The position numbers were made by a program, and so were the translations under genes. Below are positions 1,187 to 3,446 of a DNA stretch of 6,929 nt, piece after piece. The notes under the pieces were generated by a model that was not told where the DNA came from, did not search any database, and saw only the letters and a program-made list of their open reading frames with translations. Source of the DNA: a virus (lineage: Duplodnaviria; Heunggongvirae; Uroviricota; Caudoviricetes); the IMG/VR virus record IMGVR_UViG_2751185958_000012. The stretch is one strand, 5' to 3'. Positions within the stretch are counted from its first letter, which is position 1; each line of letters opens with the position of its first letter.

Positions 1187-2794
1187 ATGCTCAACTCAAG
1201 AACCTACCTTTATCAGCGTAACGGTGTCTTTTACATCCGTCTTAGAATGAAGAGCACTGGTCGCCTGACCGCTTCGCTTCCCTCTCATAACCGTTATAAA
1301 CTAGCGTCAGTATCACTACGGACTAAGGACAGACGCACCGCTATGGCTCACTCACGGCACATCAAGTCAGCACTTAAAGCAATCCACGCAGATAACCCTA
1401 ACGCCTCTTATGAGGAGCTACGGGAGCACCTGAAGACCATTGTCGAGTGGGAGCTTAGTGTCAGCCGTGATGACCTGAACGACCCAGAGTCCTACCAGCT
1501 TTACGTTGACCAGTACGATGACATTAAGTCCAACCTTCGGGAAGCTGTAGCGACTGAGCGTCTGACTGTAGACCAGCATCGCTATATCAATGACGTTATC
1601 GGTGTGCTTAAGGCCTGTCAGGACAGACTCAGGGGTGATAGCTCTGGCCTGTTGTCTTACCTTGAGCCTGAGACCAGTAGTCTAAGACCGTCCGTCTCCC
1701 TATCTGTATTGGCAGATCCTGAAGTCCCCGAACCTAAAGCTCTTACCCTCGCGTCTCTCATTGAGCAGTACGAGCAGGAGAACGCCCAGAACTGGAAGCC
1801 AGCGACCCTAAGCGAGAACCGAGCGTCGCACTCCACGCTAATCGAGATATTCGACTATCTGGATATTCAGGATGTCGGCAAGGCGACCCGTTCAGATATG
1901 CTCAGGGTCCGTGAAGTCCTCCAGCAGATACCGAAGAACCGCAAGCAACGCTTTAAGTCTATGCCGCTGTCTGACCTGCTGAACCGGGAGTCTAAGACTG
2001 ACTGTTTGGATGTCGTTACCATCAACAATAAATATCTTATCAAGATGGCTGCTGTGTTTAAGTGGGCGGTACGCAACGACTTGATAGCTAAGAACCTGAC
2101 CGAAGGTCTTGAGCTGAAAGTCCCGCAGCGTAAAGCCTCCGACGCTCGTGATGCGTTCAGTCCTGAGCAGGTAGGGCAACTACTGGTCGCCGCTAAAGCG
2201 TACTCTCAGAAGACCGCAGGTAAGCCATACCATTATTACGTCACCGCTCTGGCTGCGATCACTGGAGCAAGACTTAACGAGGTGGCCCAACTTCAGGTCA
2301 AAGACGTCAGGGTCACTGAGGCCGGGACCGTGTATATCCACATTAACGAAGACGATAGCAGCCTGCCGGGTAAGAGCGTTAAGAATGCGCATAGCGACCG
2401 CTGTGTCCCGCTGGTCGATGGCGCTTATGGTTTTGTATTGGCTGACTTTGTGTCGCTTGTGGAAGACCGTAGAAAGGCTGAGGGTGATAATGCTATGGTA
2501 TTCGATGGCCTCAAGCTGATGAAGAACGGCTACGGTGAGCAGGTGAGCAAATGGTTTAACCGAACGTTGCTACCTAAAGTCCTTGCTGACCGTAGCGGCT
2601 TAGCGTTTCACTCGTTTAGACATACTGTTGCGACCCAGTTAAAACAACATGGGGTCGAGTTAGCGTATGCTCAGGCGATTATGGGCCATTCGAGCGGGTC
2701 CATAACTTACGACCGTTACGCGAAAGAGGTTGAGGTAGATAGATTGGTTAATGTGATGGCTGGTGTTTATAAGGAGACTGGAGTAAATGGCTGA
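1187..2794 (+). CDS. int: Tyrosine site-specific recombinase (phage/island integrase), 535 aa, three-domain type with N-terminal arm-binding-like region
   Basis: C-terminal catalytic signature: TGARLNEV (Arg), [11 protein letters not shown] (His-x-x-Arg), [14 protein letters not shown] (His and nucleophilic Tyr). N-terminus VFYIRLR...[10 protein letters not shown] resembles the arm-binding domain of island integrases. Located 135 bp downstream of the tRNA 3' end, the classic arrangement for tRNA-targeting elements. Exact start codon uncertain (weak RBS at 1187). Confidence 0.9.
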
Positions 2795-3446
2795 GTATTA
2801 TCCGGCGGTGTTTGAAGCAGAAGCTTTTAATTGCCCTCACTGCGGTGTATATGCCCGTCAGTTCTGGCGTAGTATGTATGGTAATTCGAATGTGCTTGCG
2901 GTCAAATCAACTGAGTTCCGAATGTCAACATGCTCTCATTGTGGTGAAGATGCCTATTGGTATCAGGGCAACATGTTGATCCCTGCGGCTGGCAATGTTG
3001 AACTCCCAAACCCAGACATGCCCGATGACTGCAAGTCAGACTATATGGAAGCTAGAAGCATCATTAATCTGTCTCCTAAAGGCGCAGCAGCACTCCTTCG
3101 TCTTTGCCTCCAAAAGCTAATGGTCCACTTAGGCGAACCGGGAAACAACATTAATGCTGACATTCGGTCACTCGTCCAGAAAGGACTACCTGTACGCATT
3201 CAGCAGGCAGCAGACATCTGTCGTATCGTTGGCAATCAGGCGGTCCATCCAGGAGAGATTAGCCTTGATGACGACCCACAGTTGGCACATGGTCTCTTTA
3301 AGCTGTTGAACATTATTGTCACTGAGCAGATTACCAGACCGAAAGAAATTGAGGCTATGTTCCAGAGTATGCCTGAAGGTCCACGCCAAGGTATTGAGAA
3401 TCAGGACAGACAGGCGAGGGAACAGCAGCAGGCTGCTAATGAATAA
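2787..3446 (+). CDS. Hypothetical protein, 219 aa: N-terminal four-Cys zinc ribbon plus C-terminal DUF4145-like helical domain
   Basis: Two CxxC pairs (CPHCG at 16-20, CSHCG at 49-53). C-terminal segment [22 protein letters not shown]...[16 protein letters not shown]...[13 protein letters not shown] fits the DUF4145 pattern as I recall it (conserved R-x2-GN-x-A-x-H). AAGGAG RBS at 2771-2776. ATG 2787 overlaps the integrase stop (ATGGCTGA), implying translational coupling. Domain call is from memory and needs an HMM search. Confidence 0.75.

Follow-up and report, generated by a model that had tools for sequence, protein, structure and literature searches.

This locus raises the question of what a small protein gene does directly behind the integrase of a mobile element, and why its start codon lies inside the integrase gene. 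The stretch of DNA analysed here (the window) comprises 6,929 nucleotides of one strand, 5' to 3', of the IMG/VR virus record IMGVR_UViG_2751185958_000012 (Caudoviricetes). The gene in question is an open reading frame (ORF) at 2787..3446 on the plus strand, encoding 219 amino acids plus a TAA stop (3444-3446), and an earlier note made from the sequence had described its product as a zinc ribbon joined to a DUF4145-like domain with a link to abortive infection. Based on the ORF list, PADLOC and PDB entry 9Y9C, the ORF is very probably an allele of RAZR (PD-T7-4), a self-contained, one-gene abortive-infection immune protein, and it is called razr below. The razr gene is already known, its trigger, structure and effector chemistry having been published in 2022 and 2026, whereas its native island context appears to be unreported.

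Identity and architecture of the razr product

The PADLOC family PD-T7-4 (PDLC04109) matches the razr protein from end to end (E=2.7e-102, model positions 1-209 of 211), and a search of PDB sequences returned one match, chain OA of 9Y9C, the RAZR-Gp77 complex (E=2.4e-140, residues 1-219 on 1-219, 92% identity). PD-T7-4 was discovered by functional selection (Vassallo et al. 2022, PMC9519451) and renamed RAZR, for ring-activated zinc-finger RNase (Zhang et al., Nature 2026, PMC13017515); the abortive-infection link proposed earlier is borne out. The razr product differs from the protein of E. coli UMB1727 (RAZR-Ec) at 17 of 219 positions, both are 219 residues long, and the published numbering (V21, A68-G69-N70, Q140, R146, H154, R184) fits the window protein residue for residue. 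NCBIfam holds no model for the protein. Homologues number 1383 at E<1e-5, and the identical protein is found on 268 contigs, where it is labelled 'DUF4145 domain-containing protein' (Shigella boydii, or MULTISPECIES Enterobacteriaceae), so razr is a genuine ORF rather than one that arose by chance. Of 5426 complete E. coli genomes, 170 carry the gene, every copy being chromosomal; strain 582 has the closest one (99.5%).

The protein shares with RAZR-Ec the order zinc finger, linker and DUF4145/HEPN domain. The zinc-finger domain, which would act as the sensor, covers residues 1-65 (2787..2981, plus strand), and its four cysteines (codons 2832-2834, 2841-2843, 2931-2933 and 2940-2942) are paired as CPHC (C16/C19) and CSHC (C49/C52), all four being invariant in an alignment of 40 homologues. 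Pfam zinc-ribbon models remain below threshold (Zn_ribbon_3, E=0.0043); the four-cysteine ribbon noticed earlier is therefore called from the CxxC pairs and the solved homologue. The linker (residues 66-79, 2982..3023, plus strand) is identical to that of RAZR-Ec at 14 of 14 residues, or 100%, A68-G69-N70 included. The DUF4145/HEPN RNase domain and C-terminal tail follow at 3024..3443 (plus strand). A Pfam search places DUF4145 (PF13643) at residues 88-163 (E=1.3e-13, 51.3 bits against a gathering cut-off of 23.1), a span that contains the motif from which the earlier note had named the domain. DUF4145 belongs to the HEPN superfamily (clan CL0291), and zinc-ribbon fusions are among its architectures (Anantharaman et al. 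2013, PMC3710099), so that this above-cut-off match brings the razr product into the superfamily by profile. R146 (3222-3224), N150 and H154 (3246-3248) are, like the cysteines, invariant among the 40 homologues.

RAZR-Ec provides abortive infection against T3, T7, SECphi18 and SECphi27 and is non-toxic alone; phages escape through mutations in their portal proteins (gp8 of T7, gp31 of T3 and gp21 of SECphi18) or, in SECphi27, in the Erf-like Gp77, and each of these trigger proteins suffices to render RAZR toxic (PMC13017515). Cryo-electron microscopy showed 24 RAZR protomers around a 24-mer Gp77 ring, zinc-finger domains inward and HEPN domains outward, and complexes form on the T7 portal too (PMC13017515). 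Defence is lost in the R146A and H154A mutants, and deletion of AGN (A68-G69-N70) abolishes both complex formation and defence (PMC13017515). Activated RAZR blocks translation and cuts mRNA, tRNA, rRNA and single-stranded RNA oligonucleotides, not double-stranded RNA or DNA, and in vitro the purified protein needs only its trigger to cleave RNA (PMC13017515).

This mechanism was demonstrated with RAZR-Ec, whose identity to the window allele is 92%, and is extended to the latter by orthology. The window protein would accordingly be made constitutively, be harmless alone and be present as oligomers. On infection its N-terminal Cys4 zinc-finger domain would bind the outer face of a large ring of phage protein, around which 24 RAZR protomers would then assemble; the rings known to act as triggers are the dodecameric portals of T7, T3 and SECphi18 and Gp77 of SECphi27, an Erf-like protein that forms a 24-mer. 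A switch from linear to curved oligomers would activate the C-terminal DUF4145 (divergent HEPN) dimers at their composite R146/H154 site, and these would cut mRNA, tRNA and rRNA non-specifically, stopping translation and aborting the infection.

The earlier note had seen no attached nuclease and had proposed that the protein senses, regulates, serves as a decoy or counters defence, or works with a partner encoded elsewhere. Besides DUF4145, Pfam indeed detects no separate nuclease domain in the protein. DUF4145 is, however, itself a HEPN RNase family, and in RAZR it is the effector, as the loss of defence in R146A and H154A shows; sensor and effector lie in one chain, and RAZR with its trigger cuts single-stranded RNA with no further partner. 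A nuclease-less role is refuted for the family by this published biochemistry, and we consider it scarcely credible for the window protein. Since RAZR alone is non-toxic, the overexpression-toxicity assay that had been suggested would have come out negative.

Other HEPN abortive-infection RNases (the DUF4145 family, HEPT, RnlA/LsoA, Cas13) share with RAZR an alpha-helical fold, a dimeric composite Arg/His RNase site and an abortive outcome. RAZR differs from them in having no antitoxin or MNT partner, in the spacing of its Arg/His motif (R-x7-H rather than Rx4-6H), and in being activated by assembly around a phage ring, where the others respond to antitoxin loss or a guide RNA.

Variation at the trigger-contact surface

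If the protein is RAZR, the next question is whether this allele would respond to the same phages as RAZR-Ec. The zinc-finger domain is 83.1% identical to that of RAZR-Ec and carries 11 of the 17 substitutions, 8 of them at residues 29-41, whereas the HEPN domain is 95.7% identical. The trigger contacts of RAZR-Ec are R29, Y31, R35, T41 and E43 (PMC13017515), which define a variable trigger-contact loop at residues 29-43 of the zinc-finger domain; the window protein has S29, Y31, N35, S41 and E43 there, with three of the five changed (R29S, R35N, T41S). Residues 29, 35 and 41 are hypervariable over the 40 homologues, in which column entropy is 1.78 bits for the zinc-finger domain vs 0.32 for HEPN. 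This agrees with published domain swaps, in which the zinc-finger domain determines phage specificity and natural variation retargets rather than inactivates the protein (PMC13017515). As the contact positions are both hypervariable and specificity-setting, the mismatch lowers the expectation of the same phage spectrum and not that of RAZR membership.

The zinc-finger domain is nearest (91%) to that of a Serratia marcescens homologue and the C-terminal tail is of the Escherichia type, a combination that suggests domain-level recombination. The family member RAZR-Kv from Klebsiella variicola has another zinc-finger domain and published defence against T5, T7, SECphi18 and Lust (PMC13017515). 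A K. variicola homologue in our set (P0019, from locus L047), possibly the published RAZR-Kv, shares 83% identity with the window protein. From the sequence comparisons we infer that the window allele is active and that its phage spectrum probably differs.

Several observations weigh against an active allele with the behaviour of RAZR-Ec. S29 and N35 stand at positions where R29A, R29E and R35E each abolish RAZR-Ec defence against SECphi27 and SECphi18 (PMC13017515), and the window allele may not recognise the triggers of these two phages. At the higher-order oligomer interface, formed in RAZR-Ec by V21, D179, D180 and R184 (PMC13017515), V21 and R184 are retained and T179-E180-Q181 replaces D179-D180-R181. 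The canonical Rx4-6H motif of HEPN proteins is absent. A scan of positions 900-4500 for promoters and terminators found no sigma-70 consensus promoter for razr in the int 3' end; looser sigma-70 matches upstream of razr, picked by eye, were unconvincing. The window island has, moreover, been decayed by insertion sequence (IS) elements while int and razr stayed intact, and an altered expression context is possible.

Some of these points would also fit a RAZR remnant that has lost some or all of its activity in an island under decay: R29S, R35N and D179T/D180E fall at positions whose mutation killed RAZR-Ec, and remnants of IS3-family elements disrupt neighbouring island genes. The ORF is nonetheless full-length, every invariant residue is kept, residues 29, 35 and 41 are hypervariable among functional-looking homologues, and at residues 179-181 the TEQ haplotype is found in 18 of the 40 homologues, with DDR or DDQ in 21. 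The presence of the same protein on 268 contigs, with a zinc-finger variant 91% identical to the Serratia homologue, indicates an allele that is maintained and not a one-off product of decay. Given this, and the published finding that natural zinc-finger variation shifts specificity without inactivation, we regard the remnant as improbable and retain the reading as an active RAZR. The natural allele is a ready-made test of how variation in the zinc-finger domain retargets ring recognition.

The integrase junction and the glyU island

The gene upstream encodes a 535-residue tyrosine integrase of the island (1187..2794, plus strand; Pfam Phage_integrase, E=3.8e-18). As described earlier, the razr ATG overlaps the int stop: the two genes share 8 nt (ATGGCTGA), with the razr ATG at 2787-2789 and the int stop at 2792-2794, and the junction reads ...GGAGTAAATGGCTGAGT, the int frame ending GGA GTA AAT GGC TGA. 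The overlap itself is previously published, and the gene of RAZR-Ec likewise overlaps an integrase gene. A Shine-Dalgarno sequence for razr, AAGGAG, was read within the int 3' end (2771..2776, plus strand). Every locus examined has int next to razr, in Escherichia, Salmonella, Klebsiella, Enterobacter, Serratia, Yersinia and Pectobacterium alike, and the two genes either share the ATGGCTGA overlap or meet stop codon to start codon (TAG|GTG or TAA|ATG). The Shine-Dalgarno region TTTATAAGGAG is conserved at 7 of 11 junctions, and the remaining four retain TTTATAAGG and are altered after it. Translational coupling of razr to int is possible, yet unnecessary for function, because RAZR-Kv is functional with only 200 bp of upstream DNA (PMC13017515) and razr has its own conserved Shine-Dalgarno sequence.

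The same junction could point to a protein that assists the integrase and is translationally coupled to it, for instance as a recombination directionality factor or as a regulator that binds DNA. Overlap or abutment with int is conserved across genera, the product matches PHROG 1305 (1e-28), labelled 'DNA binding protein', and zinc ribbons often bind nucleic acid. Set against this, a near-identical RNase defends without int, and RAZR did not cleave DNA substrates. One related island, on an IMG/VR contig (L024), also bears on the point: its int is 94% identical and its capsid-like last gene 99% identical, and razr is replaced by an unrelated 202-amino-acid ORF (9622-10230, minus strand). An unrelated ORF in this place marks the slot after int as a cargo site rather than part of the core recombination function, and suggests that it is a swappable slot for defence cargo. 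An accessory role in integration thus seems very improbable. The 202-residue ORF has an RDAIAH (Rx4H) motif and matches HEPN_RiboL-PSP below threshold only (E=0.021), so it is not claimed as a HEPN protein; PADLOC has no family for it.

The immune gene razr comes first among the cargo genes of the island and has a ribosome-binding site of its own within the end of int. The island is integrated at tRNA-Gly(CCC) glyU (979..1052, plus strand; ARAGORN, Rfam), which holds attL. In 10 of 10 other loci checked, from seven genera, the 17-23 bp 3' end of glyU is repeated 4.3-6.5 kb downstream (attR at 22314-22330 in L001, 10616-10632 in L003 and 11636-11658 in L047, among others). A site-specific integrase with flanking att repeats, which mark a discrete element and are expected of a phage satellite, is found in these 10 loci. 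Eight of the islands measure 6.2-6.5 kb (6.24-6.48 kb) and two are short forms of 4.3-4.5 kb; in the window, attR is missing owing to truncation by an IS element. Published RAZR-Kv and the window allele share the glyU island architecture. In E. coli the genes of the ETT2 type III secretion island come next, and assignment of int and razr to ETT2 was rejected, since attR precedes the ETT2 genes.

All island genes lie on one strand, in the order attL (glyU), int, razr, an ORF-poor stretch of 0.5-1.2 kb, a Rha or KilA-N-like gene for a putative small regulator, an ORF of about 60 residues, a 163-residue protein or DUF6971, a protein of 326-378 residues, and attR. For the remaining island genes, Pfam and PHROG yielded no more than weak Rha or KilA-N matches, DUF6971 and DUF3800. 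In the window the Rha/Ant-family gene (4365..5336, plus strand) is disrupted by a 240-bp remnant of an IS3 left end (4395-4634, mapped against L001 and L010), which is fused in frame to give a chimeric ORF (4449-5336) with HTH_Tnp_1 and Phage_pRha domains in one reading frame (Pfam). A further IS3-family element (6478-6929, with an orfB fragment at 6510-6917 on the minus strand) truncates the capsid-like gene. Both scars are in keeping with a Shigella-like genome rich in IS elements. The short Enterobacter island (L048) has a DUF3800 protein (8174-8941) instead of the Rha/capsid-like module, and fragments of contact-dependent-inhibition toxin and immunity genes (PT-VENN/Ntox21, CdiI_N) lie just past its attR.

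Directly after razr, each island carries one to four sites resembling promoters of T7-class phage RNA polymerases (RNAPs). In the window, site 1 (ATAAAACCCACACTATAGGGGGA) lies at 3443..3465 on the plus strand and overlaps the razr stop, as the earlier note had reported; its core (CACTATAGG) begins 7 nt past the stop, its -17 position falls inside the stop codon, and it is conserved in the E. coli loci L001 and L002. The note's phrase, a junction between host-driven and phage-RNAP-driven transcription, fairly describes this layout as predicted. Site 2 (ACTAAACTATCACTATAGGGAGA; 3472..3494, plus strand) is of the Kayfunavirus (K1F/CR44b) type, and site 3 (4029..4051, plus strand) is conserved in other E. 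coli and Salmonella loci; the two share a 22-nt repeat, GACTAAACTATCACTATAGGGA, at 3471 and 4027. When two E. coli loci were scanned, three promoter matches were found in 24-36 kb vs 0.13-0.16 expected. Sites elsewhere lie at 18381, 18411 and 18970 in L001, 7651-8245 in L047, 6661 and 7116 in L003, 7643 in L048 and 7640-8160 in L052.

About twenty viral genomes, each roughly 39-40 kb long, contain the exact 20-mer CTAAACTATCACTATAGGGA of site 2; one of them is 100% identical to Citrobacter phage CR44b, and its relatives are Kayfunavirus (K1F-like) phages. In those genomes cTAAACTATCACTATAGG recurs as the phage's own promoter motif, with one copy equal to site 2 over 25 nt. The cognate phage of site 1 (AAACCCACACTATAGGG) was not identified among viral contigs; a lone match to AAACCCACACTATAGGG lay on the strand opposite long ORFs with no further promoter copies and was uninformative. 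The K. variicola island (L047) contains AATTAGGGCACACTATAGGG twice, an exact TAATACGACTCACTATAGGGA and AATTAGGTAGCACTATAGGGAGA, which are K11-type and T7-type promoters in place of the K1F type of the window. The Klebsiella site is found in 313 phage records. Klebsiella phages, namely K11 and related Przondovirus, account for 283 of them; each genome among the records listed has 8-10 copies, and in K11 the site is annotated 'promoter'. The Enterobacter and Serratia islands have ATTAACGACTCACTATAGGAAGA and ATTAACCCCTCACTATAGGGAGA, respectively, the latter matching T3-like phages such as Yersinia phage AP10 at 93%, and further T7-class variants occupy the same position in the Pectobacterium and Yersinia islands. 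The specificity region of the promoter thus follows the host genus, being K1F/CR44b in Escherichia, Shigella and Salmonella, K11 and exact T7 in Klebsiella, and T3-like in Serratia and Pectobacterium.

Conserved non-coding elements accompany the promoters. A long irregular hairpin forms a conserved structured leader (4267..4348, plus strand) just upstream of the Shine-Dalgarno sequence and ATG of the first cargo gene after the ORF-poor stretch; its 28 pairs include 12 with compensatory changes (RNAalifold, 8 loci, 6 genera), and it may act in translation or be cut during RNA processing, as T7 mRNAs are by RNase III. Downstream of the first promoters lies a conserved block, CATTCC.TTAACCGTA.C..ATCGCATCCTTTCAGGGGCGGGA..ACCA..ACAGAC (3624-3675 in the window, about 6705-6775 in L003, 7855-7910 in L047 and 6800-6860 in L006). 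An Rfam search of the whole window at E<=1 matched tRNA only, which places the leader and the intergenic blocks outside known RNA families. In islands from outside Escherichia the block is followed by an AT-rich stretch full of CTTAAAG, CTTAAG and CTTAGAG repeats, which may resemble the T7 left-end/phiOL region and the promoter-plus-AT-rich replication origins of T7. The intergenic region of the Escherichia type holds a putative 60-codon ORF (3846-4028, plus strand) between sites 2 and 3, with GGAGGAG ahead of it.

The capsid-like gene and the role of the island

Of the last island gene, the window retains just the N-terminal 85 codons (6225..6482, plus strand; homology to L001 stops at 6477), and the gene is intact in L001 (20901-21887) and L003 (8927-10060). 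Homology links the E. coli (329 residues) and Serratia (378 residues) proteins (31% identity, E=4e-38). Neither could be placed in a Pfam or PHROG family, a profile search of PDB sequences gave no match, and a hidden Markov model search of 1.84 billion representatives found 66 relatives, one of which bears a Big_2 immunoglobulin (Ig) domain. Ig domains are present in many virion proteins. An AlphaFold2 (AF2) model of the 329-residue homologue built from a 36-sequence alignment reached a predicted local distance difference test score (pLDDT) of 80.5 and a predicted template modelling score (pTM) of 0.77; an earlier model from a shallow, 13-sequence alignment (pLDDT 48) was unusable. Foldseek comparison of the AF2 model to the PDB gave 210 matches at E<=1e-3, and all of the top 50 matches listed are HK97-fold phage major capsid proteins, encapsulins or an encapsulin-derived engineered cage. 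Among the matches, at probability 1.00, are the podophages HRP29, PhiM1 and Kp9, which we take to be T7-like. The last gene is thus predicted with confidence to encode a protein of the HK97 major-capsid/encapsulin fold.

The island resembles small satellites (PICMI, cf-PICI, PICI, P4-like) in its tRNA-site integrase, its small size (about 6.4 kb vs 6.1 kb for PICMI115) and its defence cargo beside int, and it resembles cf-PICIs in carrying a capsid-fold gene. It differs from the satellites in that no alpA, primase, terS or portal genes were found in it. cf-PICIs carry a fuller capsid and packaging set (capsid, portal, small terminase and others), whereas the island has one HK97-fold gene and no Pfam or PHROG matches to other capsid-assembly or packaging functions. 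PICMI integrates at fis and has no capsid gene; the island lies at glyU and is predicted from the model to encode a capsid-fold protein. No description of phage-RNAP promoters was found for any satellite in the literature searched, and the RAZR papers (PMC9519451, PMC13017515) mention neither these promoters nor the island. A search for satellites of T7-like phages or islands bearing phage promoters likewise found no relevant description, most subscription journals lying outside its coverage.

Two hypotheses are the simplest coherent ones, by inference: a satellite of virulent T7-like phages induced by its helper's RNAP, or a defence island in which the polymerase of the invading phage turns on the genes other than razr. 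Both are drawn from the sensing of T7-like portals by RAZR, the host-matched promoters, the capsid-fold gene, the conserved size and the profile scans, which recognised no replication or terminase gene in the island. The helper's RNAP, and possibly its promoter-dependent replication origin too, would serve as the induction signal, with portal-sensing RAZR as the interference module. That the island is a functional element dependent on T7-like phages is a tentative view, which we put at a little under even chances. With similar reserve, razr may be the defence cargo of an undescribed family of glyU mini-islands of about 6.4 kb in Enterobacterales, wired to T7-like phages (Autographiviridae, Studiervirinae), which would be the first satellite or phage-RNAP-triggered defence island parasitising virulent T7-like phages.

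It is further possible, if doubtful, that the protein serves the mobile island rather than the host. As the interference module of a candidate satellite of T7-like phages, RAZR would be triggered by the helper's portal ring and shut down translation of helper and host late in infection, the island being transcribed from the phage-RNAP promoters. Here the beneficiary changes and the biochemistry stays the same, so the proposal is compatible with razr as a RAZR allele. It would account for the constant place of razr directly after int in a discrete, att-bounded island of 6.2-6.5 kb (8 loci) or 4.3-4.5 kb (2 loci), for promoters matched to the local T7-like phages, for the HK97-fold gene at the island end and for T7-like portals among the known triggers. 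Non-specific RNA cleavage by activated RAZR would, however, hit island transcripts also, RAZR defends when cloned alone, and an IS-disrupted island with an intact razr looks like retention of a defence gene at the level of the host. We therefore keep host defence by RAZR as the preferred reading of the gene.

The gene itself adds little to what is published on RAZR, and it is the island context, more than the gene, that is worth following up. If the island is a satellite or a defence element induced by phage RNAP, it would extend satellite biology to virulent T7-like phages and, if true, would also explain why RAZR is found fused to an integrase across the Enterobacterales.

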